Origin: Chlamydiota bacterium
GTDB lineage: Bacteria; Chlamydiota; Chlamydiia; Chlamydiales; FEN-1388
DNA: 64,000 bases
Assembly: GCA_013287775.1 (NCBI GenBank)
Contig: JABDDE010000002.1
Span: 11,988 to 75,987, forward strand
Direction of reading: 5' to 3'
Positions 761 through 62,460 of this stretch are shown one piece after another. The first letter of the stretch is position 1. Each line of letters begins with the position of its first letter. The translations under genes and the position numbers were made by a program. The notes beneath the pieces are model-generated. The model saw only the letters and a list, made by a program, of their open reading frames with translations. It did not search any database and was not told where the DNA came from.

Positions 761-799
761 GTCATGTGCAATTTTCCAAAAGGAAAATTTGTACATGAC
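761..799. repeat. PAL-1 palindrome (subtype A), near-perfect
   Basis: gtcatgtgcaattttcc-aaaa-ggaaaatttgtacatgac, 9 nt downstream of the permease stop at 809. Confidence 0.9.
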
Positions 800-808
800 A
801 TAACATGA

Positions 809-2077
809 TTACGGCAGAATATTCACATCGAAATCGAGTTCACGAACATCGGTCACGGCAGGGATGTGCCCTGTACGCATGAAGACCTCAATAAGCAGCA
901 CGCCCACAAAGAAGGCACACACAAACATAAGAACAGGTTTGGAGCTTGGAATGCGATATGAATCTCCTGCTCGCTTCATATACACGTATCTGCCAAGCCA
1001 GATCATGCATACAGGCATGATGCCATTTAAGATGGCATCCCCAAAGCCTCCTGAGACGTCTAAAGCTAAAAGAAAGATTTTCTCAAGAGATATAGCTGAA
1101 ACAAGTGTGGGCACAATAATGAGGAGTGCAAGCAGCACGCCTCCCTTGCCTTTCTTGGAGATACTCAGGCCGTCACTTAAAAAGTCATATAGCCCCAGCG
1201 ACATGCCAAAAAAAGAAGTCACCAGTGCAAAGAACGCAAAGAAATGCGCACACATCTCAAGAAGGCCATTAGAGACATGCTTGCCAAGATAATGCGTTGC
1301 TGCATGCCCCCCTTTCAAGGCTTCGAGAAGACCGTGTGGACCTGAAACTGGCACTGATCCTAAAACAATGAACTGCCAAATAAGATAGAAAATAAGCGCA
1401 ATGGAAGTGCCGGCGATGATTGCAACTTTTAATGATTTCCCATCATGCTGTAAATAAGGATGCAGGCTTGGCACCATGGTCTGCATGCTAAAAGAGGTAA
1501 GCAACATAGGTAGTGCTAGCGCGGCTATACCCCAATCTTGCCGTTCAAGAAGTTTTGGCTTTACTTCTTGGCTGCCAAGCACCACGATGATCACATAGGC
1601 TGCAAGCATGGCATAAAAGAGCCAGCTGTTTACTTTCCCAAGTATCTTGTGGCTGCAAAAAATAATCGGCCCAAAGAGGAGCATGAAGATAATACAGCCC
1701 ACTCCATGAGAGAGCTCTCCAAGCCTCAGATACTCGGCTGCTTGGGTAATCAAATGACCTCCACCTGCTGTGTAGGCCACAATCGAGGCGTATGAAATGA
1801 AGAGATAGATAATCCATGCAATGGCCTTCCCTGGCAGGCCAAGCAAAGAAGACGACATGGAGATGACATGGGCATCATCTTTTCGCATCCAAAACCCCAC
1901 TTCCGTGAGATACAGCGCCGTCGCTGTCATCGCCGCCCAGGCCACGATCATCATGATGGCGCTAGGAACAAAGCCTATCTGCGCAGTAACTACTGGGAGC
2001 GCAAGCATCCCACCACCAATACAGGTTCCTGCAACCAGAAAAATAGCACTAAAAAGGTCGGGAGAATATTTTTTCAT
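809..2077 (-). CDS. aromatic/hydroxy amino acid permease (HAAAP family, TyrP/Mtr/TnaB-like)
   Basis: 422-aa polytopic membrane protein. The N-terminal FLVAGTCIGGGMLALP motif is typical of this family. Confidence 0.75.
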   Translation of the reverse strand: MKKYSPDLFSAIFLVAGTCIGGGMLALPVVTAQIGFVPSAIMMIVAWAAMTATALYLTEVGFWMRKDDAHVISMSSSLLGLPGKAIAWIIYLFISYASIVAYTAGGGHLITQAAEYLRLGELSHGVGCIIFMLLFGPIIFCSHKILGKVNSWLFYAMLAAYVIIVVLGSQEVKPKLLERQDWGIAALALPMLLTSFSMQTMVPSLHPYLQHDGKSLKVAIIAGTSIALIFYLIWQFIVLGSVPVSGPHGLLEALKGGHAATHYLGKHVSNGLLEMCAHFFAFFALVTSFFGMSLGLYDFLSDGLSISKKGKGGVLLALLIIVPTLVSAISLEKIFLLALDVSGGFGDAILNGIMPVCMIWLGRYVYMKRAGDSYRIPSSKPVLMFVCAFFVGVLLIEVFMRTGHIPAVTDVRELDFDVNILP

Positions 2078-2212
2078 AATTTCGTCTCTACATTATATCC
2101 TGGAGGCACCTTTTTTTGCAAATTTATTTTCCTTTGTATTTTTTTCTTGTCTAAAAAAATTCTTTTTGTTACACCGGAGCCTATATACAACCAAAATTAA
2201 CGGAGAGTATCT

Positions 2213-3382
2213 ATGTTAAAAAAATTATTTACATCGCTTATGTCTCTTGCGGTACTGGTAGTTTCAGTGCCGGAGATGCAGGCGGCAGAAATTCCTTTTT
2301 CTCGACATGAGTTGATTGCAAAAAGGACTGAAAGGACTGAGAGGACAGGCATTGAAATCTTAAAACGAGGCCCTCGTGGTGAGCGCGGCAAACGTGGAAA
2401 ACATGGAAAACATGGCAAAGCTGGCGCAACAGGTGCCACAGGCGCGACAGGTGCGCCAGGCCCAGTAAATTTTATTGCACCGCACGACCTATTTGTGGAT
2501 GCAGCAACGACCCAGGATCAGGCCACGGCAAATGGTACCCTTGCCATGCCCTTCAGCACGGTTCAGGCAGCGATTAATAGGGCCACAACCATACTTCAAC
2601 CCACAAATGCCACACAGTTTATCCTTGGTACTAGTATTTATATAGCCGGTAACACCTATTCTGAGAACCCAGTTATCAATGGTACCTCTAACCGAATTAC
2701 CCTTGTCGCTATGGGTGACGTGATTTTGGGCACTGGTGCTACGACGACAGTAACGTACAATCTTACGGGTGCCAATACGCAATTTGGAACGGAAATTAAC
2801 CCAGCGCTTATCATTGAAAGCTGGACATCCCATGATGCTCCGCAAACAGCATCATCGTTTGTGAGGAACAGTGGAACGCCCGCTTTTCGTTTGTTAGGTG
2901 CCATAGAAATTAATAACAATTCTAACGTGACAGTGAATCTTGTATTCAATGGGGAGGCAACCACTGTTATTCCCAATACCCCTCGTGTTGCTATGAATTT
3001 TTTTAATTCTATCATTCATAATGATTTGAATATAGGGGCAACTAATAACCTTGCAGATGCGGTAAATACTGTGTTTCTCGGTAACGTAATGGGTCAGATC
3101 CGCTATGCTAATGAGTGCGTCTTTGATGGCGGTCTGACGCTTACAAGTGATGTTGTCATTACTCAAGGGGCCGGGGAACAAATTGGCTTTATCAATTGTG
3201 AAATAAACAATTTTTTGAACGCTAATGGCTTTACATTTTTTGTAGATGCATTTACCAATTGTTGGTTAAAAGGTTCCAATGGCCTTTCACCAAGCCCTCC
3301 TAACTATTCGCCACCATTAGTAATGGGAGTGAATGTGATTTCTCCATTTAACAAGAAAATTATTGGCGATACAACACAATAA
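2213..3382 (+). CDS. secreted collagen-like protein with beta-helix-like C-terminal domain
   Basis: Signal peptide, Gly-X-Y run RGPRGERGKRGKHGKHGKAGATGATGATGAPGP (nt 2369-2464), then ~290 aa starting DLFVDAATTQDQATANGTLAMPF..VQAAIN..IYIAGNTY..ITLVAMG. GGAG RBS upstream. Confidence 0.8.
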   Translation: MLKKLFTSLMSLAVLVVSVPEMQAAEIPFSRHELIAKRTERTERTGIEILKRGPRGERGKRGKHGKHGKAGATGATGATGAPGPVNFIAPHDLFVDAATTQDQATANGTLAMPFSTVQAAINRATTILQPTNATQFILGTSIYIAGNTYSENPVINGTSNRITLVAMGDVILGTGATTTVTYNLTGANTQFGTEINPALIIESWTSHDAPQTASSFVRNSGTPAFRLLGAIEINNNSNVTVNLVFNGEATTVIPNTPRVAMNFFNSIIHNDLNIGATNNLADAVNTVFLGNVMGQIRYANECVFDGGLTLTSDVVITQGAGEQIGFINCEINNFLNANGFTFFVDAFTNCWLKGSNGLSPSPPNYSPPLVMGVNVISPFNKKIIGDTTQ

Positions 3383-3459
3383 CAAAAACGTCATGTTCGC
3401 ATTTTTTGTACGGGAAATGGTGCATGACGAAAACATTTAACACGCAAATGGGAGATTTT

Positions 3460-4656
3460 ATGATTAAAAAATATTATACAATTATCGTGGCTTTGATGCT
3501 AAGTACCTGTTTTATGGGGGATATCTCCGCTCGAGAGATTCCTTTTTCACGCGGTCAGTTATATGCCAAAAGGCGAGGCTCTGACATTGATAGATTGCAA
3601 GTGCTCAGAGGGCCTAAAGGGGAACGTGGCAAGCGAGGCAGGCATGGTAGAGATGGTAAACATGGAAAGCATGGAGCTGCCGGTGCAACAGGCGCGACCG
3701 GTGCGACAGGAGCCACAGGAGCCACAGGGGCACCGGGTCCAGTGAATTTTATTGCACCACATGATTTATTCGTCGATGCAGCAACCACACAAGACCAAGC
3801 GACAGCAAATGGTACTCTTGCTATGCCTTACAAAAGCATTCAAGCAGCTATTAATGCAGTTCCAATAGCAACCGACAGCGCTTCGTTTACACTGGGTACA
3901 ACTATTTATATAGCTGGCAATAACTACACTGCTGAAGACTTGACAATTAACGGAGATTCAAAACGCATCACCCTCGTCGCTATGGGGGATGTAGTTGTAG
4001 GCACAGGCAGTGCAGGATCGAGTTCAATAACGTGGTTCACTACAGGTGCAAATAATGATTTTACATCAGGTAAATTGACTACAACACTCACTATTGAAAG
4101 TTTGACGTCTTTGGATAATTCGCAAGCAACTGGGGCATCGCTTGCTATGGACGAAACTCCAGGAATACCTGCATTTCGTCTTCAATCGCAGATCACTGCA
4201 ACGACAGCATCGACGGATGATGTCAGCTTAGTAATCAATGCGGGGCTTCCTACTGTGGTTGCGACGGTAACGGGAAATGGCGACATGAATGTATTCTTCT
4301 ACAATTCTGTTGTTAACCAAGCCCTCAACCTCTCGTCATCGGGCGTGTCTATGAGTGCGGTTAATTCTGTGTTTCTAGGCAGTGTTACGGGCCTCATTCC
4401 GTATGCTTCACGCTCCTGTTTTGAGGGTGGGATAGTGCTTTCTGGCTCTACGATATATACTAGCGGAATTGGTCAGCGTCTTGGTTTCCAGGAATGCACA
4501 ATAAACACATCGTTCAATGGAGCGACCTTCGTTTTCTATGTTGATGCTTATACAAATAGGTGGCTAGAAAATAATGGAGGCACTCCAATTCCTGGGGTTC
4601 CTCAATTCACTCCAACCAACGTTGGTAATAAAGTAATTCTTGCTAGCGTAACCTAA
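3460..4656 (+). CDS. secreted collagen-like protein, paralogue of 2213-3382
   Basis: ATG at 3460 with GGAG 5 nt upstream. Signal peptide, 15 Gly-X-Y triplets (nt 3610-3741), and the same C-terminal domain start as the neighbour. Confidence 0.8.
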   Translation: MIKKYYTIIVALMLSTCFMGDISAREIPFSRGQLYAKRRGSDIDRLQVLRGPKGERGKRGRHGRDGKHGKHGAAGATGATGATGATGATGAPGPVNFIAPHDLFVDAATTQDQATANGTLAMPYKSIQAAINAVPIATDSASFTLGTTIYIAGNNYTAEDLTINGDSKRITLVAMGDVVVGTGSAGSSSITWFTTGANNDFTSGKLTTTLTIESLTSLDNSQATGASLAMDETPGIPAFRLQSQITATTASTDDVSLVINAGLPTVVATVTGNGDMNVFFYNSVVNQALNLSSSGVSMSAVNSVFLGSVTGLIPYASRSCFEGGIVLSGSTIYTSGIGQRLGFQECTINTSFNGATFVFYVDAYTNRWLENNGGTPIPGVPQFTPTNVGNKVILASVT

Positions 4657-9778: not shown

Positions 9779-9785
9779 GGTTTTG

Positions 9786-10038
9786 TGCAGGGAGAGCTAC
9801 AGGAGAGGGTTAGGAGTGCTTGATGCGTTGGTGAGGCAGGTCAGGGGGGCTTTTTTTCACAGGGAGAGCCACAGGAGAGAGCTTGTCAGAGGCGTGTGGG
9901 GAGCTTGATGCGTTGGTGAGGAAGGTCTGGGGGGCTTTTTTTCACAGGGAGAGCCACAGGAGAGAGCTTGCAGAGAGAGCTTGACAGAGGCGTGTGGGGT
10001 GCTTGATGTGTTGATGGAGAAGGTGTGGGCCGTGTTCT
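9786..10038. repeat. ~85-bp tandem repeat, about 3 units
   Basis: Units at ~9788-9857, 9858-9942 and 9943-10038. The first two units share cacagggagagccacaggagag...gcttgatgcgttggtgagg...ggggggcttttttt; the third is degenerate at its 3' end (gtgggccgtgttct replaces the G-run/T-run). Confidence 0.85.
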
Positions 10039-11079: not shown

Positions 11080-11395
11080 AGGCATAATCCTCGTAGAATA
11101 GTTGTGAGGGCAACAAAACAGCCCCATATTTTCCGAACAGATGCATTGCCGTCCATTCAGTACCATCCACGGTAACATATCGCTTTTCGTTTTGTCAACT
11201 AGGATGTTTTGTTTTTATTTTTTTAGATGAGGTGCTTGCAAAATTCCGTTGGAGACAAAATTTGATGATTGTGGCGATGGGAAAAGCCTTTTGCAAATCG
11301 ACATACTCCCTCGAGTAGGCGATTTGCAAAAGGTTTTTTCCCAGCGACAAAAGCGCGAATTTTGGCCCAAACCGGAATTTCGCAAGCGCCTCACG

Positions 11396-11446
11396 TGAGT
11401 GGGCAGCTCGATAGAGCGGTCTCCTCACATCTAGATAATCAAATCC
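11396..11446. repeat. PAL-2 repeat (degenerate copy)
   Basis: gtgagtgggcagctcgatagagcggtctcctcacatctagataatcaaatcc, homologous to the copies at 12281 and 14731. Confidence 0.8.
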
Positions 11447-11885: not shown

Positions 11886-11887
11886 TT

Positions 11888-12202: not shown

Positions 12203-12280
12203 ATGGACTTAAAAAGATAGAAAACCATCCATGCAAATACTTCAGTATCTAACTTTCAGTTATTAATTAAGCTTTCTGGT

Positions 12281-12746: not shown

Positions 12747-12750
12747 TTTA

Positions 12751-51217: not shown

Positions 51218-51353
51218 AGTTTTTCCTTTGATTGTAGCCAAGGCTTGTGGATGACAAGCCTATGCTAATATGTTAAAAAATAATTTAAATTTCGGCATAC
51301 CCTCCCTGAATGTACGCCATATGTAAATTTTCTGTAAAGGAATAATAGCATAA

Positions 51354-52913
51354 TTAAGAAGAGGTGAGTAACCCTAGCAAATGATCCCCAACACGTAGCG
51401 CATTTGCTATGGCCGTAAGCGAGGGATTCACAGCGCCAATGCTCGGGAAAAAACTGGTGTCTACAACATAGAGATTGTCTAGCTCGTGAGCTTTGCAATT
51501 CACATCAATCACAGAGGTTTTGGGGTCCTTGCCGAAGCGGCAAGTGCCTGCTTGATGGGCGACGCCTGCAATGGGGATATCAGTTTTGAAATACATGGAG
51601 CGAGGAATTAAATGCTCAGGGTGCATGCCAAGATGGCCGAGCATGCTTTTAAGCTGTTCGTAGAGCTTGTTTTTGGGCACTTGATTGTTGGGTGTATAAC
51701 TCAGAGTTATGTCTCCTGCATTATTGACAGTGATGCGATTGCTTACATTAGGTAAGTCTTCTGTGGAGAGCCAGAAGTCGACAGCATGGCGCGAAATCTC
51801 TTCTAAGAGCATATGCGGCACGAGTGCGGTTTCTATGGGTTTTTCGCCCTTATACATGGCTGGTAGTGACTTTCCAACCATTTGGATATTGCCCATGGGG
51901 TAGGGAAAATCTTTTGTGCCAAAGTAAAAATCGTTAAGTGCCATCGTTTTCTGAAAGTAGGTAGGATTTGGCTCTCGAGAAATCGCAAGAACCGCTTGGC
52001 TGTTATGATACATGTAGTTGCAGCCCACCATGCCAGAGCCGTTGGCAAGGCCGTGAGGGTGTTTATCATTTGCAGACTTCAATAGGAGTGCGGCCGAGTT
52101 TGCCGCCCCACACGATACCACAACAATATCAGCTGTAAATGACTGCAGGCTTCCATCTTTTTCAACGATAACCTCATTTACGGATGTCCCTGAGGCATTA
52201 GTGGTGAGCTTCACAGCCTTTGCTTCTGTGCACAAGGTGACATTGGTATACTCTATGGCCGGGCGGCAGGCAATCATCTCCGCATCAGCTTTTGCTTGTA
52301 CCAAACAAGGAAATCCATCGCACGTTTGGCAGCGAATGCAGCGGCTCATCTCTCTTTTTTGTTCATTGAGCATAATAGCACAGGGAGCTGGAAAAGGGTG
52401 ATAGCCAGCTTTTTTCAGGTTATCATAGAGCTGTTGTATGCGCGGCTCATGAGAGACTGCAGGGTATGGGTATGGACCACTTGCGTCAGGCTCAGTCGGA
52501 TCTATCCCACGCTCGCCGTGCACCTGATAGAGCTGTTCAGCTTTCAGATAGTAGGGCTCAAACTCCTCATAGCTCACGGGCCAAGCAGGAGAGATGCCAT
52601 CGTAGTGTTTGAGCTCGCCGAAATCCTCTCTCCGAAGCCTGTAAAGGGCTGCGCCATACATTTTTGTAGCGCCGCCGACATAGTAGTGTACTTGGGGCTG
52701 AAAGGCTTTGCCAGTGCTATCATACCATGTGTCGGGTGAGATATAGCGGTTTTGTACAAAGACAGACGTTGCATCCCAATTTTCGACTTCACGTTTGAGC
52801 CATCCACCACGCTCTAAGAGCAGGATTCGCTTGCCAGAAGGGGCAAGATGGCGAGCGAGTGTCCCACCGCCTGCCCCGCTCCCAATAATGATCACGTCAT
52901 AATGTTCACTCAT
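51354..52913 (-). CDS. GMC family FAD-dependent oxidoreductase
   Basis: DVIIIGSGAGGGTLA dinucleotide-binding motif. 519 aa. Confidence 0.8.
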   Translation of the reverse strand: MSEHYDVIIIGSGAGGGTLARHLAPSGKRILLLERGGWLKREVENWDATSVFVQNRYISPDTWYDSTGKAFQPQVHYYVGGATKMYGAALYRLRREDFGELKHYDGISPAWPVSYEEFEPYYLKAEQLYQVHGERGIDPTEPDASGPYPYPAVSHEPRIQQLYDNLKKAGYHPFPAPCAIMLNEQKREMSRCIRCQTCDGFPCLVQAKADAEMIACRPAIEYTNVTLCTEAKAVKLTTNASGTSVNEVIVEKDGSLQSFTADIVVVSCGAANSAALLLKSANDKHPHGLANGSGMVGCNYMYHNSQAVLAISREPNPTYFQKTMALNDFYFGTKDFPYPMGNIQMVGKSLPAMYKGEKPIETALVPHMLLEEISRHAVDFWLSTEDLPNVSNRITVNNAGDITLSYTPNNQVPKNKLYEQLKSMLGHLGMHPEHLIPRSMYFKTDIPIAGVAHQAGTCRFGKDPKTSVIDVNCKAHELDNLYVVDTSFFPSIGAVNPSLTAIANALRVGDHLLGLLTSS

Positions 52914-52929
52914 ATAAGTCCTATCTTCT

Positions 52930-53412
52930 TTAGCTCCATTTATTTAAGAGCTGCTCCACATCACTCCAGGGGAGACGACTGCCTTTTTCTTTCATTGAAT
53001 CAAAACTATGTTTAGCCTGAGCTTGTGCAATAATTTTTTGATTCAGTAGCTCTTCAACGATCCACATGGTTCCATGTACTTCTATTCCTTCACTTTTCGC
53101 AGCAGTTCGAAGATACTTATCACCTGTAAGGAGCGGACATCTCTCTTGCATTGCAAGAGCTAAAGCTGAGTGATCCATGATACTTGGTCGTGGATATTTG
53201 CAATTCAAAAACTCAGCTTTTTTAACCGATTCTGCAGTGAGGCTACGTACTTGTAATCCTGCTTGCAAAAGATGCCCATGTTGTTCTTTGAGCTCTAATT
53301 CAAAGAGAGTGTCAGGCACCGCAATTTCATAAGGAAGGCGAAAAATAACGGGTGTTAAGTTGCCATCCTCCATGTCTATGAGAATGTTAGCATCGCTGAT
53401 AAGTAAAATCAT
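52930..53412 (-). CDS. PIN-domain protein (putative toxin/nuclease)
   Basis: N-terminal LISDANILID, mid E residues and LLTGDKYL acidic positions typical of PIN. 26-nt overlap with the upstream HTH-ImmA gene. Confidence 0.6.
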   Translation of the reverse strand: MILLISDANILIDMEDGNLTPVIFRLPYEIAVPDTLFELELKEQHGHLLQAGLQVRSLTAESVKKAEFLNCKYPRPSIMDHSALALAMQERCPLLTGDKYLRTAAKSEGIEVHGTMWIVEELLNQKIIAQAQAKHSFDSMKEKGSRLPWSDVEQLLNKWS

Positions 53413-54463
53413 GTGAATTTTGTACCTGACGAAGTGCTTTCAACTGTGAAAGCGAGCAGGATAATAGTTCTGCTGCTTTTGATTCTCCAATATATTCTTC
53501 CCCTAAGGCATGAAATAACATTTGGTTGAAGGTATGTGCTTTTTCAGGAGGTGTTGCTAAGCCTGGTTCTTTGAGATGCCATCCTCGTGCACGGAAACGA
53601 ATGATAAGATTTTTGAAGTAAGATTCTTTAATGATCATTAGGTCTTTAAGGCGATAGCAAATGGCGCTCATGCTTAACTGGAATTGTTCTTTGAGGAGAA
53701 GAAGTTCCTGCCATTCAATAGTGCGACGCTCTTTTCCGATTATCTGGAATACAGTTTCTCGGGGGAGTAGGAAAGCACCTGCAAATCTATTACAGGCTTG
53801 TTCTTCATCGAGTTTAGGTGATAGACGATTGATAAAAATATAATGAGCAAGCTCATGTGCTACATTAAAGCGTTGTCGATCGCCCGGCCACTTTGTGCTA
53901 ATTACTATAATGGGTTGATCGTCGATAGTGGTAGACAGCCCATCAAAATGTTCCTCATCAGTATCGATAACAAAAACTCTTATTCCATGGCTTTCACACA
54001 CATCAGTAAGGTCATGAATAGCATCAAATCCCAGCTTCCAAGAGGCTCGCAGATTTTCTGCAATGACTTCTATTTCTTCAAAATTATTGATTTCCTGAGG
54101 AAAGTTTGTTGGAAGAACAAATGGCGATACAGGAGGAGTGGGGTAAAGATTTTCTAACTCCAGACGGCGTTCTATTTGATTAATAACTGTAAATTTAATT
54201 GCACTTTCTGCTTTCCCTTGCAGTTTTTTCCGTTTGCGAAATTTGACATTTTCTAGGGAAACTTTGGCAGGACGAAAGAAAAAATCAATACATACTTGTA
54301 ATGCTTTTGCCAATTTGATAAGAATGTCTGACGAAGGATAGGTATCTCCATCTTCATATTTTTTAATTGCGGTGTGACTAAGCTTAACAACGGTTGCAAG
54401 ATCTCGAAGACTCATCCCTGCAGCTTTCCTGGCCTGTTGCAGACGTGTGCCTATAATGCTCAT
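53387..54463 (-). CDS. XRE HTH fused to ImmA/IrrE (COG2856) zinc metallopeptidase
   Basis: ATG at 54463 (MSIIGTRLQQARKAAGMSLRDLA...), an HELAHYIF HExxH motif, and DRQRFNVA upstream of it. Confidence 0.7.
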   Translation of the reverse strand: MSIIGTRLQQARKAAGMSLRDLATVVKLSHTAIKKYEDGDTYPSSDILIKLAKALQVCIDFFFRPAKVSLENVKFRKRKKLQGKAESAIKFTVINQIERRLELENLYPTPPVSPFVLPTNFPQEINNFEEIEVIAENLRASWKLGFDAIHDLTDVCESHGIRVFVIDTDEEHFDGLSTTIDDQPIIVISTKWPGDRQRFNVAHELAHYIFINRLSPKLDEEQACNRFAGAFLLPRETVFQIIGKERRTIEWQELLLLKEQFQLSMSAICYRLKDLMIIKESYFKNLIIRFRARGWHLKEPGLATPPEKAHTFNQMLFHALGEEYIGESKAAELLSCSLSQLKALRQVQNSHDFTYQRC

Positions 54464-54550
54464 AATGCCTCTATTTATTATTGGTTTACAGCATATAAAA
54501 AAATGGTATTTTTGTAAACTAGCAGAAAAATGAATAGTGTGAGCCATTTT

Positions 54551-54590
54551 TGTCATGTGCAATTTTTCGTAGAAAAATTCGCACATGACA
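54551..54590. repeat. PAL-1 palindrome (subtype A variant)
   Basis: tgtcatgtgcaatttttc-gta-gaaaaattcgcacatgaca, 6 nt after the stop at 54597. Confidence 0.85.
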
Positions 54591-54596
54591 TAACAC

Positions 54597-57287
54597 TCAT
54601 ATAAGTCCTATCTTTTCTTTTTCTATGGTTGCTGCAGGCTCATGCTGCAGGACAAATTTTCCATACTGCTGTATAAGCTTGGCTACAAGGGCTGTCCAGC
54701 CGGTTTGATGGCTTGCTCCGAGGCCGCAGCCACTGTCTCCATGAAAGTACTCATGAAATGGGATGTAGCCATTAAAATGGGGGTCAGTTTGAAATTTTTC
54801 GACGCTGCCATACACAGGCCTTCTTCCATGCTCATCTTTAAGAAAAATATTTACAATTCGTTTGGAAAGCTCTGAGGCTACTTCCCAGAGGTTTAAGTAG
54901 CTGCCTGAACCTGTAGGACATTCTACTTTGAGATCGTCGCCAAAATAGTAATGAAATTTTTGAAGCGATTCTATAAGGAGAAAATTCAGTGGCAGCCAAA
55001 TAGGGCCTCGCCAGTTGGAGTTGCCTCCAAAAAGGCCTGTAGTGGATTCTGCGGGCTCATAGTCGAGTCTAAAAACTTGGTTGCTAATATGGACGACAAA
55101 GGGCTCTGTAGCGTGCCTTTTTGAAACAGAACGAATACCAAAGGGGCTTAAAAACTCCTGAGAGTTGAGTACTTTTTTCAGCACTCTCATGAGTTTTGTA
55201 CTATTAGCAAAGGCAAGCAGGACGCGTCCTTCGACACCCAATTTTTCAAGATTTGCAATGTTTTGAAGCATATGGGGCCTGTTTTCAATAAACCAGTGAA
55301 AGCGCTTTCTGTATTCTGGAAAGCGATGAGCAATCTTAGCTTCATTGGTGGCTACAGCAAATAAGGGAATAACGGAGGTCATGGTGTCTTGGCGCATCCG
55401 GATAGAGCGACCATCAGGGAGCATTAAAAGGCCATAGTAAAACCCATTTTCTCGGTCCCATAAGCCCTCAGATTGGCCTGTGACGTTATTAATAGCATCG
55501 GCAATATAGACAAAGTGCTCGAAAAACTTGGTTGCCATGTCCTCATACACAGGATTTTCAATTGCCAGCTCCAAGGCAATCTGAAGACAGTTCAGGCAGT
55601 ACATGCCCATCCAGCCCGTTGCATCGGTCTGTTCGAGGATACCACCTGTGGGGGGCTGAAGAGAGCGATCGAAAGCACCAATATTATCGAGGCCCATAAA
55701 GCCGCCTTCAAAGATATTGCGCCCTTGGCTGTCTTTTCTGTTGACCCACCAAGTGAAGTTCAGGAGGAGTTTATGGAACATTTTTTCTAAAAAGATGCGA
55801 TCAGCTGTGCCATACATAGCGTGCTCAATTTGGTAGACGCGCATGGCTGCCCAGGCATGTACAGGAGGGTTGGCATCACTGAATTGCCACTCGTAGGCAG
55901 GAATTTGCCCGCAGGGAGCCATGTACCACTCGCGTGTCAGGAGTAGAAGTTGGTTTTTGGCAAAGGCCGGATCGATCATAGCGAGCGTCACTGTATGGAA
56001 GGCAAGATCCCATGCGGCAAACCATGGGTATTCCCATTTGTCAGGCATAGAAAAGATCTCGAAGGCATCAAGATAGGGCCATTCATGATTTCTTGTAACT
56101 TCACGCTCTTCAGGAGGCTTTGGCTGCAGAGGATCACCTCGCAGCCATGTGCGTACGTTGTAATGATAGCATTGCTTATTCCATAATAGCCCTGCAAAGG
56201 CTTGTCGCTGGATAGAGCGCATATCTTCAGGCAGTGGATAGGGCGTAACCGCTTGGTAGAAGGCGTTAGCTTCACTTTGCCTTTTTACAAAAAGCGCATC
56301 AAAAGCTTTGTCAAATGGATGTGTCAGGGCATTTTTCGAGGTGAGCCGAAGCTTTACTATTTTTTCTTCTCCTGCTTGCAGCTCCAGCTGATAGGCAAGG
56401 CATGCCTTTGTTCCTTTTTGCTCCGGATGTACTGCCGTCTTACACCCATGTACAAAATAGTCATGAAAGCTGTCCTTAACATAAGGCGCAGCATTGGGAA
56501 CTTGAAAGAGGCGCGCTATGTTCGTTTCATTCTCGGTAAATAATGCAGGAGGTTGTCCCTCATAGTAGAGCCAGTATTGCCCCAGAGTGTCTTCGGTTGC
56601 GTGGAGAGCGCCTTGAGTGAGGTCGAGGTGTGGTTTTAGCCCTCCTTCCCAGCTCCAGGTATTTCGAAACCATAGATGTGGCAAAAGATAGATGGAAGAT
56701 GCTTCAGGGCCACGATTGGCAATGCGATACCGAATCAGAATATCCTCAGAATCACTTTTGGCATATTCAATAAACACATCAAAGTATCGATTATCATCAA
56801 AAATCTTCGTATCTATAAGTTCATACTCAGGCTCGTATCGATTTCTTTGTCGGTTGGTGGTCAGAAGATCATTATAGGGAAAGGGGCTTTGAGGATACTT
56901 ATAAAGGTATTTCATGTAGGAATGTGTTGGGGTATTATCGAGATAATAATAATACTCCTTTACATCTTCACCATGATTGCCTTCATTGTTGGTGAGGCCA
57001 AATAAGCGCTCCTTCAAAATGGGGTCTTTGCCATTCCAAAGAGCTGTTGCAAAACAAAGGCGCTGCTTTGTATCAGAGATGCCGGCGATGCCATCTTCGC
57101 CCCAGCGGTAGGCGCGCGAGCGTGCATGGTCATGAGGAAAATAATTCCATGCATCTCCATTTGCGCTATAGTCCTCACGCACAACGCCCCATTGCCGCTC
57201 GCTGAGATACGGCCCCCATATTCGCCAGGGGGCATCTATTGCTGTGCTCGCAGCAAGGCGCTTGCCTTCTTCGGTGTCAGATATCAT
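54597..57287 (-). CDS. GH63-like (alpha/alpha)6-barrel glucosidase (MGH1-like)
   Basis: 896 aa. The pattern of W/Y-rich conserved blocks (WAAWDLAFH, GGFMGLDNIG, HQTGWTA) is as in bacterial GH63-like glucosidases. Confidence 0.6.
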   Translation of the reverse strand: MISDTEEGKRLAASTAIDAPWRIWGPYLSERQWGVVREDYSANGDAWNYFPHDHARSRAYRWGEDGIAGISDTKQRLCFATALWNGKDPILKERLFGLTNNEGNHGEDVKEYYYYLDNTPTHSYMKYLYKYPQSPFPYNDLLTTNRQRNRYEPEYELIDTKIFDDNRYFDVFIEYAKSDSEDILIRYRIANRGPEASSIYLLPHLWFRNTWSWEGGLKPHLDLTQGALHATEDTLGQYWLYYEGQPPALFTENETNIARLFQVPNAAPYVKDSFHDYFVHGCKTAVHPEQKGTKACLAYQLELQAGEEKIVKLRLTSKNALTHPFDKAFDALFVKRQSEANAFYQAVTPYPLPEDMRSIQRQAFAGLLWNKQCYHYNVRTWLRGDPLQPKPPEEREVTRNHEWPYLDAFEIFSMPDKWEYPWFAAWDLAFHTVTLAMIDPAFAKNQLLLLTREWYMAPCGQIPAYEWQFSDANPPVHAWAAMRVYQIEHAMYGTADRIFLEKMFHKLLLNFTWWVNRKDSQGRNIFEGGFMGLDNIGAFDRSLQPPTGGILEQTDATGWMGMYCLNCLQIALELAIENPVYEDMATKFFEHFVYIADAINNVTGQSEGLWDRENGFYYGLLMLPDGRSIRMRQDTMTSVIPLFAVATNEAKIAHRFPEYRKRFHWFIENRPHMLQNIANLEKLGVEGRVLLAFANSTKLMRVLKKVLNSQEFLSPFGIRSVSKRHATEPFVVHISNQVFRLDYEPAESTTGLFGGNSNWRGPIWLPLNFLLIESLQKFHYYFGDDLKVECPTGSGSYLNLWEVASELSKRIVNIFLKDEHGRRPVYGSVEKFQTDPHFNGYIPFHEYFHGDSGCGLGASHQTGWTALVAKLIQQYGKFVLQHEPAATIEKEKIGLI

Positions 57288-58054
57288 TATAATCCAGAGC
57301 TCTGATGCATAAGACCGCCATCGACAAAGAGTGTGGTTGCGGTCATGTAACTTGCTGCGTCCGATGCCAAGAAGGCCACCACATTGGCAATCTCCTCAGG
57401 CTTTGCCATCCTGCCGAGGGGGATTGCAGTGTCGAGCTTTTGTAACAAGCTTGGGTCCTGCATGGTAGAACGGTTAATAGGTGTTGCAACAGCCCCTGGG
57501 CCTACGCCGTTTACAAGGATATTATGTTTTGCAAGCTCGACGCCTGCAGTTCTCGTGAGCATGCGCATACCGCCTTTTGAGAGGCAGTAGGCCGTGTTAT
57601 TTGGCATAGGCCAGTCTTCATGGACGGATGTGATGTTAATAATACGCCCGCCGCTGCCCTGTTTGATCATTTGGTTGGCGGCAATTTGTGTGCCAAAAAA
57701 GGCGCTTTTGAGGTTGATGGCAAGCACTCTATCATACTGGGCCTCTGTGGTATCCAGAACGGAGGTACGACTCTCTACCCCTGCATTATTGACCATAATG
57801 TCTATGTGACCAAATTGTTTCACAGCAGCGTCAACAAGCTTTTGGAGATCTTCTACCCGGCTGACATCTGCATCTATGCCAATGGCTTGATCGCCGAGGG
57901 CAATCACTTGTTGTTCAAGAGCCTGTGTAGAGGCAGGATTCACCACATAGTCGATGACAATGCTCATGCCTTGTTTTGCGAGGGCAAGTACAATACTTGC
58001 CCCGATTCCTGAATTGCCACCTGTGACGATGGCTACTTTTTGTTTTGTATTCAT
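57287..58054 (-). CDS. SDR family oxidoreductase (glucose 1-dehydrogenase-like)
   Basis: TGGNSGIG, NNAG and YCLSK motifs. Its stop codon (57287-57289) shares 1 nt with the GH63-like start codon (57285-57287). Confidence 0.8.
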   Translation of the reverse strand: MNTKQKVAIVTGGNSGIGASIVLALAKQGMSIVIDYVVNPASTQALEQQVIALGDQAIGIDADVSRVEDLQKLVDAAVKQFGHIDIMVNNAGVESRTSVLDTTEAQYDRVLAINLKSAFFGTQIAANQMIKQGSGGRIINITSVHEDWPMPNNTAYCLSKGGMRMLTRTAGVELAKHNILVNGVGPGAVATPINRSTMQDPSLLQKLDTAIPLGRMAKPEEIANVVAFLASDAASYMTATTLFVDGGLMHQSSGL

Positions 58055-58065
58055 GGTATAATTAA

Positions 58066-58097
58066 GTGGTCAATCCCCCTATCGGGGGACCGACCAC
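58066..58097 (-). terminator. GC-rich hairpin downstream of the collagen-like gene
   Basis: gtggtc-aa-tccccc-tatc-ggggga-cc-gaccac, followed on the minus strand by UUAAUUAUA. Confidence 0.35.
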
Positions 58098-58115
58098 TAA
58101 AAAAGTTTAAAGTTA

Positions 58116-58838
58116 TTAACTCGGTGTATAGTTGAATGATGCAGAAAATGCTGCAGGCTGGATATCAAACGTATTAAACCCGCTGGGGCTTATCACAACC
58201 GTGAGCATAGTTCCTGCGGTTACCAAAGCAGTATTGATAGTATTTTGAAATGTAGCAGTCAGTGGAGAGCCTGGACTGATCGACAAGGTGCCTGTACTTA
58301 GGGTAAGTGTAGTAGCCGTCCAACTCCCTAGAGGTACAGGTGTTCCAATTGGCGAACTCGATCCATATACAGTAAAAATAAAGGAGGGGCTAGCAGTTGC
58401 TGTAGATGAGATGTCGAGGCGTGCTGTGAGATTGGATATCGTGCCATCTGTTGGTACTAAGAAAGTACTGGTATAGATTGGCGGGACTGGAATAGTGGTG
58501 GTTGGATCAAACTGATCAGGAAGGTTCTGGCTATCGGATGGGTAAAAAGAAAAATCATAGTTCGGAACCACCGCAAGCGCCGTACTAAAAGGCACAGTTT
58601 GCCCTCTGGGATCTGCAGTCCCGGTGGCACCAGTGGCACCAGTCGCTCCTGTTCCGCCAACTCTACCACGAGGGCCTCTATGACCGCGGTGGCCTCGCCG
58701 CCCTCGCCTATGATGATGCTGGCTTTTTGCAATAAGCTCTTGAGGCATAACAGGGGTAAAAACGGGCTCTGCAAACATGTCAGAGCATGCAAAACTGAGC
58801 CATGCCGAGAATATAAAATAAAAAACTTGTTTTATCAT
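58116..58838 (-). CDS. secreted collagen-like protein with distinct ~160-aa C-terminal head
   Basis: Signal peptide, leader MPQELIAKSQHHH, and Gly-X-Y run RRGRRGHRGHRGPRGRVGGTGATGATGATG (nt 58602-58703). Confidence 0.75.
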   Translation of the reverse strand: MIKQVFYFIFSAWLSFACSDMFAEPVFTPVMPQELIAKSQHHHRRGRRGHRGHRGPRGRVGGTGATGATGATGTADPRGQTVPFSTALAVVPNYDFSFYPSDSQNLPDQFDPTTTIPVPPIYTSTFLVPTDGTISNLTARLDISSTATASPSFIFTVYGSSSPIGTPVPLGSWTATTLTLSTGTLSISPGSPLTATFQNTINTALVTAGTMLTVVISPSGFNTFDIQPAAFSASFNYTPS

Positions 58839-58911
58839 AATGCCTTATTTGGGTAATGGGTAAAAACCGCATCTTAAGCAAGGAGAGTATTATTCTGGAA
58901 GGGAAATTTAT

Positions 58912-58950
58912 GCCATGTGCGACTTTTCCTTCCAGAAAAGTGCACATGGC
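58912..58950. repeat. PAL-1 palindrome (subtype C)
   Basis: gccatgtgcgacttttc-cttcca-gaaaagtgcacatggc. Confidence 0.85.
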
Positions 58951-58991
58951 ATAAAATCATAAACCAGCGAAAACGCATGCTTTTTCATCGA

Positions 58992-59077
58992 TTTTCGCCA
59001 GATTAAATCATCAACTTGGCGAAAACTGGTATAAAAAGTTGACTTTTCGCCAAGTTAAGGTGTATAATTGGCGAAAA
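58992..59077 (+). promoter_or_regulatory. sigma70-like promoter with two 10-N14-10 inverted-repeat operators
   Basis: -35 TTGACT at 59039-59044 and -10 TATAAT at 59063-59068 (18-nt spacer). TTTTCGCCAg-N14-TTGGCGAAAA at 58992-59025 and TTTTCGCCAA-N14-TTGGCGAAAA at 59044-59077. Confidence 0.55.
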
Positions 59078-59090
59078 ATGGGGGGGAATC

Positions 59091-60545
59091 ATGGAAAACG
59101 CTATCGTAGGGAGAGACGCCGAGCTTGAAATACTCAAGCAGATATATGCCTCGAAAGAGCCACATTTCTTGACTGTATATGGCCGTAGAAGGATTGGAAA
59201 GACATTTTTGATAAGCGAATTTTTTAAAGATAAGGGGATTTATTTTGCAATAACGGGGATGAAAAATGGCACTCTGCGCGAGCAGCTCTTTCAATATGCG
59301 TATGAATTTGCGCGTCAATTTAATGATGGTCAGCCAATATCGCCTCCAAAAAGCTGGGACGAGGCACTACACGAACTTCGAAAAGCTATAGAAAAGGCAG
59401 ATAAGAACCAAAAATGCATCTTATTTTTTGATGAAGTCCCCTGGCTGGCATCGCCTCGTTCGCGATTTCTTAGTGCCCTGGAGTATTTCTGGAACCATTA
59501 TGCATCGAAAAATGCTAACATAATCATGATTATTTGTGGCTCTTCGGCATCATGGATTCTTCGAAATATCATACACAACACACGTGGTCTCTATGGAAGG
59601 GTAACGAGAACCATACGGCTTTTGCCATTCACTCTTGGAGAGACAGAGCAGTATTTACAATCGCGGCATATTGCACTGGACAAAAAGCAGATTATTGATA
59701 TCTACATGGCCCTTGGTGGTGTTCCAAAATACCTCTCATACATACAACGAGGCAAGTCAGCCGCACAAAACATTAATGATATATGTTTTTCTTACCATGG
59801 CGCTTTATATAACGAATTTGATAATCTCTACAAATCCCTCTTTGATCACCATGAGCATCATATAGCTATGGTTAAGGCGCTTAGCGCCACAAGAGATGGT
59901 CTTACGAAAGATGAGCTTTTACAAAAAACAAAACTGACTTCAGGTGGCTCTTCAAGCAGGATTATTGAGGATTTGGTGGATGCGGGATTTATAGTCTGTG
60001 TGCCATCTTTTCATAAAAAAAAGGTAGGCGGGGTATATCGTCTTATCGATGAGTATACGCTGTTCTATTTATCATGGCTTGTGGATGCTTCAAAAGTGGC
60101 TTTTGGAAGAGGCGATACCACAGTGTGGATAAAAAAATGTGGCACACCTGCGTGGAGAGCGTGGAGTGGGCTTGCTTTTGAGTCACTCTGTTTGAAGCAT
60201 CTTGAAAAGATACGACAAGCGCTCGGTATTGCTGGCGTTACTACGATGGCCTCTGGATGGCGCTATAGGCCGAAAAGGGGACAAGGTGCGGGAGCACAAA
60301 TTGATTTAGTCATAGATAGGGCAGATAAGTGCATCAACCTCTGTGAAATGAAATATAGCGATACGGAATTTACGGTTGATAAGTCCTATGGGGAAAAGCT
60401 GCGTTACAAAAAAGAGATTTTTCGGCAGCAAACAAAGACAATGAAAGCATTATTTTTGACTATGATTACGACGTATGGTGCTGTCAAGAATATGCATTAT
60501 CTCTCTGAAGTTGATGCTGAGGTGACTATGGAGAGTTTATTTTAG
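59091..60545 (+). CDS. AAA+ ATPase of the archaeal-ATPase/DUF234 type
   Basis: IVGRDAELEIL N-terminus, Walker A GRRRIGKT, Walker B ILFFDEVPW, and GGGGGGA RBS. Confidence 0.7.
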   Translation: MENAIVGRDAELEILKQIYASKEPHFLTVYGRRRIGKTFLISEFFKDKGIYFAITGMKNGTLREQLFQYAYEFARQFNDGQPISPPKSWDEALHELRKAIEKADKNQKCILFFDEVPWLASPRSRFLSALEYFWNHYASKNANIIMIICGSSASWILRNIIHNTRGLYGRVTRTIRLLPFTLGETEQYLQSRHIALDKKQIIDIYMALGGVPKYLSYIQRGKSAAQNINDICFSYHGALYNEFDNLYKSLFDHHEHHIAMVKALSATRDGLTKDELLQKTKLTSGGSSSRIIEDLVDAGFIVCVPSFHKKKVGGVYRLIDEYTLFYLSWLVDASKVAFGRGDTTVWIKKCGTPAWRAWSGLAFESLCLKHLEKIRQALGIAGVTTMASGWRYRPKRGQGAGAQIDLVIDRADKCINLCEMKYSDTEFTVDKSYGEKLRYKKEIFRQQTKTMKALFLTMITTYGAVKNMHYLSEVDAEVTMESLF

Positions 60546-60586
60546 CGTCATGTGCCATTTTCCTGCCGGAAAAATGGCACATGACG
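60546..60586. repeat. PAL-1 palindrome (subtype B)
   Basis: cgtcatgtgccattttcc-tgcc-ggaaaaatggcacatgacg, starting 1 nt after the ATPase stop. Confidence 0.9.
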
Positions 60587-60600
60587 TTAAATAACATGTG

Positions 60601-61332
60601 TTATCTAATCTGCTTAATGGTAACAAAAGCCGAAGCGGTACCCCCAAAGGCAACTAAGGGATCTACTAACTCAACAATGCCTCCTACATTCACTCCAGCC
60701 GCTACTATTTCAAATATAGTCGATGCTGGTACATTAAAAGTTAATGATTTCGTTGCCCAACCCTCTGCGCCTGCTGCTTGTGAAAGCCGGCTTTCTGTTA
60801 CTTCTACGCCATTAATACGTATGGCGATAACGGGATTGGTATCGCCGTTAGTACCAGTAAATCGCGCGCCGAATGTGACTTCATAATCACCTGCATCGGT
60901 AGTGACAAAAATACCACTGGGTGGGGTAAAACTAATAGAGCCTGCCGAATCGGTTACTACATTGAATTGTATTGCATCATTAGCAGTTATTGATTGATCG
61001 CTGAATCCGGAGCCATTTGCAACGACGCTAATAAAATTGTTGATGCCGCCACTGCCAGCAGGACCAGTCGCGCCAGCAGGACCAGTCGCACCAGTTGCTC
61101 CCGTTGCGCCCATTGCCCCAGTTGCACCCATTGTGCCTATGCCTCGCTGGCCACGGTGTCCGCGATGTCCGCGGTGACCACGATGCCCGCGTCGTCCCTT
61201 ATGATCATGCTTGCCTTTTGCAATCAACTCCTTAGGCATAGTTGGTTGGGTAAGCAGAGAGTCTGCAAATCCTTCTCGACACACAAAAAGTAATAGGAAA
61301 CAAGTAATAAAATAAAAAATTTTTCTAAACAT
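60601..61332 (-). CDS. secreted collagen-like protein with BclA/C1q-like C-terminal head (tentative)
   Basis: GGAGG RBS, signal peptide, leader MPKELIAKGKHDH, and (GHR)4 then GAT/GPA triplets (nt 61054-61197). The C-terminal ~140 aa are beta-rich (GDYEVTFGARF...). Confidence 0.75.
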   Translation of the reverse strand: MFRKIFYFITCFLLLFVCREGFADSLLTQPTMPKELIAKGKHDHKGRRGHRGHRGHRGHRGQRGIGTMGATGAMGATGATGATGPAGATGPAGSGGINNFISVVANGSGFSDQSITANDAIQFNVVTDSAGSISFTPPSGIFVTTDAGDYEVTFGARFTGTNGDTNPVIAIRINGVEVTESRLSQAAGAEGWATKSLTFNVPASTIFEIVAAGVNVGGIVELVDPLVAFGGTASAFVTIKQIR

Positions 61333-61413
61333 GATACCTCCATTGTTGATTGGTTAAACCGCACAGTATTTCAGGAAGGAGGTATTTGACAAGAAAAAAG
61401 TATATATTACTAG

Positions 61414-61454
61414 CGTCATGTGCCATTTTTCTGTCGAAAAAATGGCACATGACG
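61414..61454. repeat. PAL-1 palindrome (subtype B)
   Basis: cgtcatgtgccatttttc-tgtc-gaaaaaatggcacatgacg. Flanks (tagcg...ttaaa) are also shared with the 60546 copy. Confidence 0.9.
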
Positions 61455-61686
61455 TTAAAACTCGTTCAGTTTTTGTGATTTATGACAAAAAAGTCGATGT
61501 ATTTTTGTGAAATTTTCACGTTTTCCGAACATAATGTTGTGGATAATAGGGTTTCTTGGCATCAGTTATACGGTGGGCGATTTCTTTAAACGATCCCTTA
61601 TTTCCAGTCACATTCTGAATAGAAACATCCTTGAGAGATAGCCTTCAGAGCTTCTGCGATATAATCGATGGTGTTTGGCGGCAAGC

Positions 61687-62196
61687 TTAGGTGTTGACAT
61701 TGGCACTAGAACGTGTTTTTTTGGCGGATTTCTGTATGTAAAAATCGAGCATATACTGGCCGCCCAGTACAAGTGAAAGATCTTTTACTTGTGGGATAGT
61801 TGTCCATGTATATGCACGATGCTCTGTAGAGAGGTGGATAGGTACCGTTGTATCTATATTCAAACCAAAAACATGGAAGACAAACTCGATGGTGACTTCG
61901 TGCGTCGTTTTGCGGATATACACTGTGCCAAGAGGTTGTAAGGCATTTTCTGACTCAATAGTGATACCAGTTTCTTCAAAAAGCTCTCGTCTGGCTCCTT
62001 GTATAGGCGTTTCATGAGCCTCGATTTTCCCACCAGGAATGGCACATTTTCCTGTTTCTGGCTTAGTGTCGGCATATTCTAAAAACAGCAATTTATCGGC
62101 TACTTTTACGTAGATGCCCGCTGCTTGAATAGTCGTAGAGAACCCTTCAGGCAAACTCTCGTAAATCTGGATGTCAGGGACTATGTTAGTCATCAA
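61687..62196 (-). CDS. NUDIX hydrolase
   Basis: Nudix box GGKIEAHETPIQGARRELFEETGI. Confidence 0.8.
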   Translation of the reverse strand: MMTNIVPDIQIYESLPEGFSTTIQAAGIYVKVADKLLFLEYADTKPETGKCAIPGGKIEAHETPIQGARRELFEETGITIESENALQPLGTVYIRKTTHEVTIEFVFHVFGLNIDTTVPIHLSTEHRAYTWTTIPQVKDLSLVLGGQYMLDFYIQKSAKKTRSSANVNT

Positions 62197-62232
62197 TGTG
62201 TTATTAATTTATGGTGAATAAATACCTTGAAA

Positions 62233-62306
62233 TTGCACCGAAGAGGACTCGAACCTCTAACCACCTGGTTCGAAGCCAGGTACTCTATCCGATTGAGCTA
62301 TCGGTG
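62233..62306 (-). tRNA. tRNA-Arg (anticodon UCG)
   Basis: Reverse complement is GCACCGATAGCTCAATCGGATAGAGTACCTGGCTTCGAACCAGGTGGTTAGAGGTTCGAGTCCTCTTCGGTGCA. 7-bp acceptor stem, anticodon stem CCTGG/CCAGG with loop CUUCGAA, and a TTCGAGT T-loop. CCA is not encoded. Confidence 0.9.
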
Positions 62307-62420
62307 CATAAAATAATAAACCTCAGTATATCAGGTCACAGCTTTTTTCGGAAGAAACTTCAAACATCATCAAACATTTGATGGAATGAAAATTATGAGT
62401 GTGATATAAGTATTAGGTAA

Positions 62421-62460
62421 CGTCATGTGTCATTTTCCTTTCGGAAAATGGCACATGACG
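62421..62460. repeat. PAL-1 palindrome (subtype B variant)
   Basis: cgtcatgtgtcattttcc-tttc-ggaaaatggcacatgacg. Confidence 0.9.

Follow-up and report, generated by a model that had tools for sequence, protein, structure and literature searches.

A dispersed family of near-perfect short palindromes, probably REP-like, in a 64-kb window of an environmental chlamydia genome

The window analysed here, a 64-kb stretch of the Chlamydiota assembly GCA_013287775.1 (contig JABDDE010000002.1, positions 11,988 to 75,987), contains a family of short intergenic palindromes to which we gave the name P1. Protein sequences place the host among Parachlamydiaceae-like chlamydiae, its phenylalanine hydroxylase, encoded in the window, being 77–91% identical to proteins of Parachlamydiaceae and other environmental chlamydiae. 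The coding fraction of the window is 0.854. Besides a tRNA-Arg(TCG) gene, the window comprises core genes (phhA-yhhQ-phhB, PHO4/PhoU and RecO) and many accessory genes, which encode HigBA, ParDE, a pair of AbiEii-like nucleotidyltransferases (NTases), an ATPase, collagen-like proteins and an HTH-M78/DUF3368 module.

A covariance model built from 14 aligned copies was run over the whole window with filters off, and returned 15 full P1 copies at E ≤ 1e-5, the next match having E = 0.19. Two half copies bring the total to 17 elements, and the density is ~1 copy per 4 kb. The arm motif was observed 14 times (0.43 expected) and the two-arm pattern 10 times (0.00 expected), while a scan of the window for unpaired arms with at most one mismatch recovered only 25775–25791 and 44452–44470. 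The initial annotation had counted 13 full and two half copies, all of which stand, but those at 240–287 and 3389–3430 had been overlooked. Because copy 3389–3430 lay outside the training set, its detection (31.1 bits, E = 1e-5) is independent. This copy and the one at 12751 also recur in a separate Logan assembly of the short-read run SRR8434706, and are therefore no assembly artefacts.

The P1 consensus, TTTa-CGTCATGTGCmATTTTCC-loop-GGAAAATkGCACATGACG-tAAA, describes a stem of 17–19 bp and a loop of 2–6 nt, which together form a palindrome of 36–41 bp; the repeated unit, consisting of stem, loop and a few subfamily-specific flanking bases, measures 47–52 nt. Stems are AT-rich (~40% GC), each strand has T-rich sequence 5′ of the palindrome and A-rich sequence 3′ of it, and a single bulged base occurs in seven copies, frequently at the same stem position (GTGC(G)...). 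Folded as RNA, the hairpins have energies between –21 and –35 kcal/mol and z-scores between –6.4 and –9.5. The three sequence subtypes first proposed, AA, CA and AC, can be recognised in the alignment. To AA belong the copies at 761–799 (60.6 bits), 32901–32938 (with ATATG and a perfect 19-bp stem) and 54552–54589, together with a divergent one at 17682–17718 (GTACAATTTTCC, 51.7 bits). CA is represented at 240–287 (59.5 bits, with a 1-nt bulge in the left arm), 41960–41998, 43718–43756 (with ATATG), 60546–60586 (68.5 bits), 61414–61454 and 62421–62460, and AC at 12751–12790 (a perfect 19-bp stem), 47521–47560 (with a bulged C) and 58912–58951. The copies at 3389–3430 and 49304–49334 are degenerate, the latter also being short (GAGCGACTTTTC...) and weak (34.6 bits). 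Higher scores on the + strand in 13 of the 15 full copies were set aside as circular, the model having been trained on + strands. In the Logan data, contig L074 breaks inside copy 761 (at ~770), and another contig spans copies 12751 and 17682; from the break, further near-identical copies of the AA subtype may exist elsewhere in the genome.

In pairwise alignments, similarity between copies ends sharply at the unit edges, and pairs or trios of copies agree in features that the palindrome itself does not dictate. Specifically, copies 41960 and 43718 have CTATTT...GACGC and the loop GCA in common and show three differences, two of them mirrored; copies 60546 and 61414 (94% identical over 49 nt) share the flanks TAG...TTAAA; copies 761 and 54552 and the half copy at 25775 share the flanks TTTTT...ATAACA; and copies 47521 and 58912, which lie in opposite orientation, are near-identical and carry the same GGAA loop and bulged base. 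Sharp edges and inherited asymmetric features therefore indicate copied discrete units, not hairpins that evolved independently. No target-site duplication was found at solo P1 copies, where the longest direct flank match equals background, and inspection by eye found no shared target motif between stop codon and stem.

The two arms of the palindrome vary together. Changes on both sides occur at 11 of 17 stem pairs, 92% of stem cells are paired, and double-change cells number 27 versus 8.8 in shuffles, none of 500 shuffles reaching 27. One-sided changes are confined to six cells, G–U pairs are nearly absent, and the two most similar copy pairs each show three differences, of which two mirror each other. 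Insofar as selection on an RNA helix would tolerate G–U, the strict Watson–Crick symmetry points to a DNA-level constraint that may have kept the arms alike. Hairpin-templated correction of quasi-palindromes is an established mutational mechanism; this process, or recognition of the DNA hairpin by an enzyme, is a candidate cause of the symmetry.

All 17 elements lie in non-coding DNA (P ~1e-14), as the initial annotation had held for its copies. Overlap with the longest open reading frame (ORF) in three copies reflects only artificial 5′ extension, since the first ATG is found in the arm sequence GTCATG. ORFs extended in this way from an arm ATG are 290–796, 3406/3424–4656 (3424–4656 being the automatic gene call) and 53387–54586; the last encodes 399 aa versus 356–358 aa in homologues, and its true start is therefore placed at 54463, 41 codons downstream. 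Palindrome-borne ATGs inflate gene models, and at least three genes in the window are over-extended.

Ten of the elements are located 0–14 nt from a stop codon. The ten individual stop distances claimed at the outset (0–15 nt) were all confirmed, at 0–14 nt, and further ones were added by copy 240, which sits between converging stops (233–235 and 290–292) at 4 and 2 nt, and by copy 3389, 6 nt past the stop of a collagen-like gene (2213–3382). Copy 761 is 9 nt from the stop of an aromatic amino-acid permease gene (809–2077, minus strand), copy 12751 adjoins the yhhQ stop, copy 43718 has converging stops at 11 and 6 nt, and copy 49304 lies 14 nt from the multicopper oxidase stop. Between copy 47521 and the upstream stop are 5 nt, with 131 nt to the next start; for copy 54552 the corresponding distances are 7 nt (GH63 stop) and 88 nt (true HTH-M78 start). 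At copy 60546 the TAG of the repeated unit is itself the stop codon of the ATPase gene (59091–60545), and a converging stop follows at 14 nt. In three roomy tandem gaps (133, 176 and 232 nt) the copy is found 5–14 nt from the stop and 88–187 nt from the next start, a placement with a joint chance of ~0.001 by our own arithmetic. The remaining full copies include 32901, 144 nt past the stop of a Sel1-repeat gene, and 41960, which adjoins a 27-codon pseudo-fragment of the 3′ end of an ABC gene.

The earlier remark that no consistent U tract accompanies the hairpins was borne out: none follows in either direction of transcription, and the 3′ flanks are A-rich on both strands. Among the nine copies within 43–63 kb, a terminator-like flag fell on one (copy 49304, antisense strand). 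More generally, canonical terminator-like sites (a hairpin plus T tract) number 13 in positions 43001–63000, where 17.7 are expected from shuffles; they are not enriched, and this stretch is essentially without recognisable intrinsic terminators.

Two collagen-like paralogues (58116–58838 and 60601–61332) have their N-terminal coding and 5′ regions in common (upstream to 58951 and 61454, respectively). P1 copies 58912 and 61414 lie 73 and 81 nt upstream of the respective ATGs, yet one is of the AC and the other of the CA subtype. Two histories would account for this: a palindrome older than the gene duplication, both arms of which co-evolved where they stood, or two separate hits on the same spot. 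Promoter-like ATGGCA hexamers in the arms upstream of the two genes were rejected as candidates, as they occupy differing arm positions and occur at background frequency.

Comparison of gene junctions with relatives, which had been proposed as a check, yielded two orthologous P1 sites, both empty. The first is inside the phhA-yhhQ-phhB operon, where, as the initial annotation had it, copy 12751 fills the 44-nt yhhQ–phhB gap; the same gap measures 16 nt in L025 (PhhA 87% identical) and 7 nt in L026 (89%), and holds no palindrome in either. The second is the GH63|GMC junction; in L078 and L079 the SDR, GH63 and GMC-oxidoreductase genes follow one another directly, the gaps measuring 18 and 9 nt. 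The covariance model found no copy in 81 kb of relatives' DNA compared with 15 in 64 kb here, and long hairpins of any kind are very few in those sequences. In 185,579 species genomes, a collection that excludes the window's own genome, the pattern GTGCNNTTTTCC-N2-6-GGAAAANNGCAC gave 23 single matches in unrelated taxa, none of them chlamydiae. Viral contigs held no P1 match, BLAST searches of plasmid and phage collections returned nothing relevant to P1, and Rfam matched only the tRNA. Given the empty sites, the relatives without copies and the chance-level matches in collections, P1 is therefore specific to this lineage. A metagenome scan with a looser two-arm pattern gave at least 46 stretches; the matches listed were rejected as unrelated palindromes, since they scored 27–39 bits, versus 47–68 for real copies, with one per locus.

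The same comparison revealed a difference in gene order. In GCA_000829755.1 (L025, 4613–6904) genes for a YheO-like PAS/HTH protein and an aminotransferase directly follow phhB, whereas in the window (12330–21701) both are 7–9 kb away on the opposite side of the phh operon, with PHO4/PhoU, P1 and copies of another repeat, resembling a miniature inverted-repeat transposable element (MITE), in between. This arrangement indicates a local rearrangement.

The half copies coincide to differing degrees with rearranged DNA. The right-arm half copy (44452–44472, + strand) belongs to a composite rearrangement (41953–44563) that contains the NTase module (42084–43710) and a 693-nt, 5′-truncated PNP fragment (43759–44451). 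The PNP gene had been described as cut at this half copy, and its reading frame is indeed truncated exactly at the 44452 junction. The half copy is an exact 21-nt repeat (AGGAAAATGGCATATGACGCA) of 43738–43758, i.e. an arm of copy 43718, and the PNP fragment lies between the two. It also starts the sequence repeated from 41980 on, which consists of the right arm and the last 27 ABC codons, and a 131-nt direct repeat (P1 plus these 27 codons) flanks the NTase module. A solo terminal repeat of the unrelated MITE-like element (42072–42089) marks the module boundary, precisely where the duplicated ABC 3′ fragment ends.

The second insertion, of 1666 nt (52928–54593), separates GH63 from GMC (52907–54614 with its repeats). 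Its contents are P1 copy 54552, the HTH_3/Peptidase_M78 gene and DUF3368, and on either side stands an exact 21-nt direct repeat, CACTCATATAAGTCCTATCTT (52907–52927 and 54594–54614), with P1 4 nt away. Two independent insertions, the 693-nt PNP fragment and the 1666-nt HTH-M78/DUF3368 segment, are thus each flanked by exact direct repeats of 21 nt; we know of no mechanism that yields 21-nt duplications. The ancestral GH63 stop and GMC start overlapped (ATGA), and therefore no P1 could have been the target of the 1666-nt insertion. Moreover, other chlamydiae carry the HTH-M78/DUF3368 module after topA, where it has no P1 beside it, and the conserved operator-like region of the module starts ~30 nt inside of P1, so that P1 is not a cassette end. 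Most likely, copy 54552 was inserted beside the GH63 stop once intergenic space existed.

The left-arm half copy (25775–25791, + strand) matches copy 761 as far as TTTTCC and then diverges. Both half copies end exactly at the stem–loop boundary, ends that would fit breakage at an extruded hairpin. The initial annotation had placed the 25775 half copy beside a direct repeat; the repeat is real (24435/25834), but the half copy ends 42 nt before it. This 154-nt repeat (24435–24588 and 25834–25987, 94% identical) flanks the second of two alpha/beta-hydrolase paralogues (22097–22966 and 24740–25687, ~77% identical in DNA) and runs into MITE-like copies, and the hydrolase pair, to judge by these sequences, suggests a segmental duplication. 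The proposed link between P1 and rearrangement breakpoints stands in part: the 44452 half copy bears it out, and 25775 is suggestive. The link concerns two or three events, however, and there is partial confounding, since palindromes, like tolerated insertions, are restricted to the DNA just past stops.

P1 comprises discrete units that have been copied to many intergenic sites without duplication, with a bias towards stops and with orthologous sites empty in relatives. With a probability of roughly 0.6, we regard it as a lineage-specific, non-autonomous short palindromic repeat that acts like repetitive extragenic palindromes (REPs). The earlier description of P1 as behaving like REPs or bacterial interspersed mosaic elements (BIMEs) therefore needs dividing: REP-like holds as a working analogy, in that P1 is dispersed, extragenic, stop-proximal, divided into subfamilies and absent in relatives, but P1 is neither a tagged REP nor a BIME, as its copies are not clustered and do not alternate.

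The GTAG REPs of E. coli, Pseudomonas and Stenotrophomonas, which are moved by REP-associated tyrosine transposases (RAYTs), are likewise short, dispersed, extragenic palindromes with subfamilies in one genome. According to PMC3733652 and PMC12306157, they also resemble P1 in lacking a target duplication, in lying often ≤15 nt from stops and in having lineage-specific sequence. REP ends can provide a TAG stop codon (PMC3733652), and REPs ≤15 nt from a stop codon stall ribosomes, as stated in PMC12306157, citing Liang et al. 2015. At 36–41 bp and 15 full copies in 64 kb, P1 matches the description of a short (20–40 bp) multi-copy extragenic palindrome. The two differ in their stems, which are near-perfect and 17–19 bp long in P1 versus imperfect and 5–13 bp long in GTAG REPs, and in the host phylum, here Chlamydiota. 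An unpaired 5′ GTAG is lacking, the outermost P1 bases being part of the stem and covarying, and the doublets or clusters known as REP doublets forming hairpins (REPINs) or BIMEs do not occur: all 15 full copies are singletons, with a minimum spacing of 521 bp and a gene between.

The CGTC super-family of REPs, which includes Neisseria dRS3 and the Rickettsia palindromic elements (RPEs) RPE-4 and RPE-6, is associated with no dedicated transposase, as is P1 in the 64 kb searched, and also occurs in obligate intracellular bacteria. Its members have an unpaired tag at one end, a stem of 8–9 bp, a loop of 4–5 nt and a 3-nt CCA-like tail (Di Nocera et al. 2013; PMC3733652). CGTC does start seven of the 15 P1 copies, but there it is paired and mirrored (CGTCATG...CATGACG); the remaining copies start GTC, GCC, GCT or TCA instead. 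P1 is most similar to the untagged REP-like stem-loop families of Mycobacterium, Deinococcus, Bordetella, Brucella and cyanobacteria (PMC3733652), which are dispersed intergenic palindromes with neither a terminal tag nor a known enzyme. Their sequences are unrelated to P1, the class is defined only descriptively, and no chlamydial member has been reported; this untagged class, loosely defined as it is, fits P1 best. No account of REP-type repeats from environmental chlamydiae turned up in full-text searches of the literature.

In the REP-like account, copies would owe their spread to an enzyme that acts in trans from a gene elsewhere in the genome; a hairpin-recognising single-strand transposase of the HUH/Y1 class (RAYT/IS200 type) would be the best fit because duplications are absent. 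Arm symmetry would be upheld on the DNA, through quasi-palindrome correction or the recognition needs of the enzyme. Once transcribed, the hairpins would act other than by canonical intrinsic termination, because no U tract follows them, and probably block 3′ exonucleases; the predicted hairpin energies make protection of mRNA 3′ ends plausible. Hairpins ≤15 nt from stops may in addition disturb terminating ribosomes, by analogy with E. coli REPs. The extruded DNA hairpin could furthermore be a fragile point, and fragility at its centre would explain why the half copies end exactly at the loop.

Several observations weigh against the REP-like account. The mobilising enzyme was not found in the 64 kb searched; specifically, Pfam, NCBIfam and PHROGs assigned no transposase, HUH or integrase domain to any of ~60 ORFs, which upholds the initial statement that the window encodes no RAYT or integron integrase. 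P1 lacks both an unpaired tag (GTAG or CGTC) and REPIN or BIME doublets, and a near-perfect palindrome offers a RAYT-type enzyme no obvious strand asymmetry. Four of the 15 copies are in 5′ or divergent regions instead of 3′ ends, namely 17682, 58912, 61414 and 62421, the last 112 nt upstream of tRNA-Arg(TCG). Just two orthologous sites were compared, with distant relatives (~70–91% amino-acid identity), and no recent gain or loss was seen directly; for the GH63-like protein the next-best homologue is only 71% identical, and there is therefore no close relative for comparison. The high P1 density could be local to the 64 kb examined. Finally, every RNA-level effect is one that we infer.

An unlikely alternative is that P1 is a minimal MITE, i.e. 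two terminal inverted repeats of a DDE-type insertion sequence placed back to back and moved by its transposase, encoded elsewhere. Discrete units that amount to essentially two inverted arms of 17–19 bp, with subfamilies, would suit such an origin, and the separate MITE-like element of ~375 bp in the window indicates that the genome tolerates elements of this kind. However, solo P1 copies show no target-site duplication, the window contains neither a transposase nor a parent insertion sequence with termini CGTCATGTGCC.../...GGCACATGACG, and variation is mirrored even at the outermost stem positions, which is not required of terminal repeats. A resemblance of the arms to the IS5 and IS26 termini was too weak to be of use.

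Less likely still are non-mobile regulatory hairpins in RNA or DNA (non-canonical terminators, processing sites or stabilisers), selected at gene ends, whose common sequence would reflect a shared binding factor. This would account for the proximity of 10 of the 17 elements to stops, for the very stable folding, for the lack of enrichment of canonical terminators (13 versus 17.7 expected) and for the fact that unrelated palindromes of a second family, P2, are also stop-proximal. Yet the same gene ends in relatives have no hairpin, one copy lies within an operon and four are in 5′ regions, no U tract is present, loops, bulges and flanks are inherited among distant copies, and the near-absence of G–U speaks against selection on RNA. 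An intrinsic terminator consists of a hairpin followed within 0–2 nt by a U-rich tract on the transcribed strand. P1 resembles such terminators in placing a stable hairpin soon after a stop, but differs in a sequence common to unrelated genes, in its AT-rich stem, in the copy inside an operon and in the missing U tract on either strand.

The initial annotation had also considered that P1 might delimit gene cassettes in an attC-like manner. In a version of this idea that dispenses with an integrase, P1 would be a self-symmetrising DNA hairpin that is cut structure-specifically at the loop and the stem base and opens entry points for accessory modules. The two 21-nt repeats with P1 at the junction, together with the two loop-ended half copies, would be footprints of such cutting, in two or three events. 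We consider such an integrase-independent cassette system a long shot.

Even less probable are attC-like or other structure-specific recombination sites that mark off mobile gene cassettes and at which some recombinase would cut the hairpin centre. attC sites have R″ (RYYYAAC) and R′ (GTTRRRY) cores, are 57–141 bp long and form a co-oriented cassette array beside intI/attI. Like P1, they are imperfect palindromes by accessory genes, may have extrahelical bases and are active as folded single strands. In favour of this reading, single accessory genes lie between consecutive P1 copies (58912/60546/61414 and 41960/43718), each half copy stops at the loop, both insertions with exact 21-nt direct repeats have P1 at the junction, and one bulged base recurs at a given stem position in several copies. 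The cassette reading is nevertheless not supported. P1 lacks the R″/L″-L′/R′ architecture, inspection of the aligned ends revealing just a chance GTTAAAT in copy 60546, and at 36–41 bp it is too short. Flanking genes are in mixed orientation and not in a co-oriented array, there is neither attI nor intI in the window, and copies are also found in core operons, including the conserved phh operon, and in 5′ regions. P1 lies upstream of the HTH-M78/DUF3368 module here, not at its 3′ end, the module occurs without P1 in other chlamydiae, and the ancestral overlap of GH63 and GMC means that P1 was not the target of that insertion.

Double-stranded binding sites for a dimeric protein (nucleoid-associated, partition-type or a repressor) would explain the strict dyad symmetry kept by Watson–Crick changes only, and the invariant TTTT/AAAA next to the loop, but are the most improbable of these readings: the arms vary at 11 of 17 positions, which would be intolerable for a single protein, spacers range from 2 to 6 nt, copies lie beside stops rather than promoters, and P1 shows no match to the chlamydial HrcA, PhoB and Euo motifs. 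DNA uptake sequences (Neisseria DUS, or the Pasteurellaceae equivalent, USS) are abundant as singles on both strands, also in genes, with pairs a minority; P1 has only two unpaired arms (≤1 mismatch), neither in coding sequence.

P1 is accompanied by other repeats. The second palindrome family, P2 (TTTAGATGTGAGTGGGCAGCTC-GATA-GAGCTGCCCACTCACATCTAAA), is unrelated to P1 and has copies at 11388–11436 (degenerate), 12273–12331 and 14724–14785, 3–6 nt past stops. The P2 repeat reaches into the last 9–10 codons of phhB and PHO4 in different frames, and the C-terminal tail of phhB is therefore unlike that of relatives. Two P2 copies bracket the HigBA module (11517–12202), and an outer motif, TTTA..ATGTG / CACAT..TAAA, is common to P2 and P1. 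The MITE-like repeat of ~375 bp has terminal inverted repeats ATGGTGTCAACTTAAAG and occurs at 25929–26307, 33123 to ~33500, ~18000–18511 and 24531–24641, in addition to the solo end at 42072–42089; a comparison of copies 25929 and 33123 over 95 nt gave 98% identity. Tandem repeats are present at 9779–10029 (85–98 nt, G-rich, non-coding, after a pseudouridine synthase gene), at 389–586 (a 33-nt coding unit in the coiled-coil gene 290–796) and at 31737–32361 (a 108-nt Sel1 repeat in gene 31479–32756).

For the organism, P1 at such a density, together with its absence in relatives, would mean that a reduced, obligately intracellular lineage is still open to bursts of small mobile DNA; Rickettsia (with its RPEs) and Wolbachia provide precedents for such bursts. 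The stop-proximal copies and the one within phhA-yhhQ-phhB make effects of hairpins on translation termination and on differential mRNA stability testable in a genetically difficult organism. With the Watson–Crick symmetry of its arms and the breakpoints at the loop, P1 offers a natural data set in which the correction of quasi-palindromes and the fragility of palindromes can be studied.

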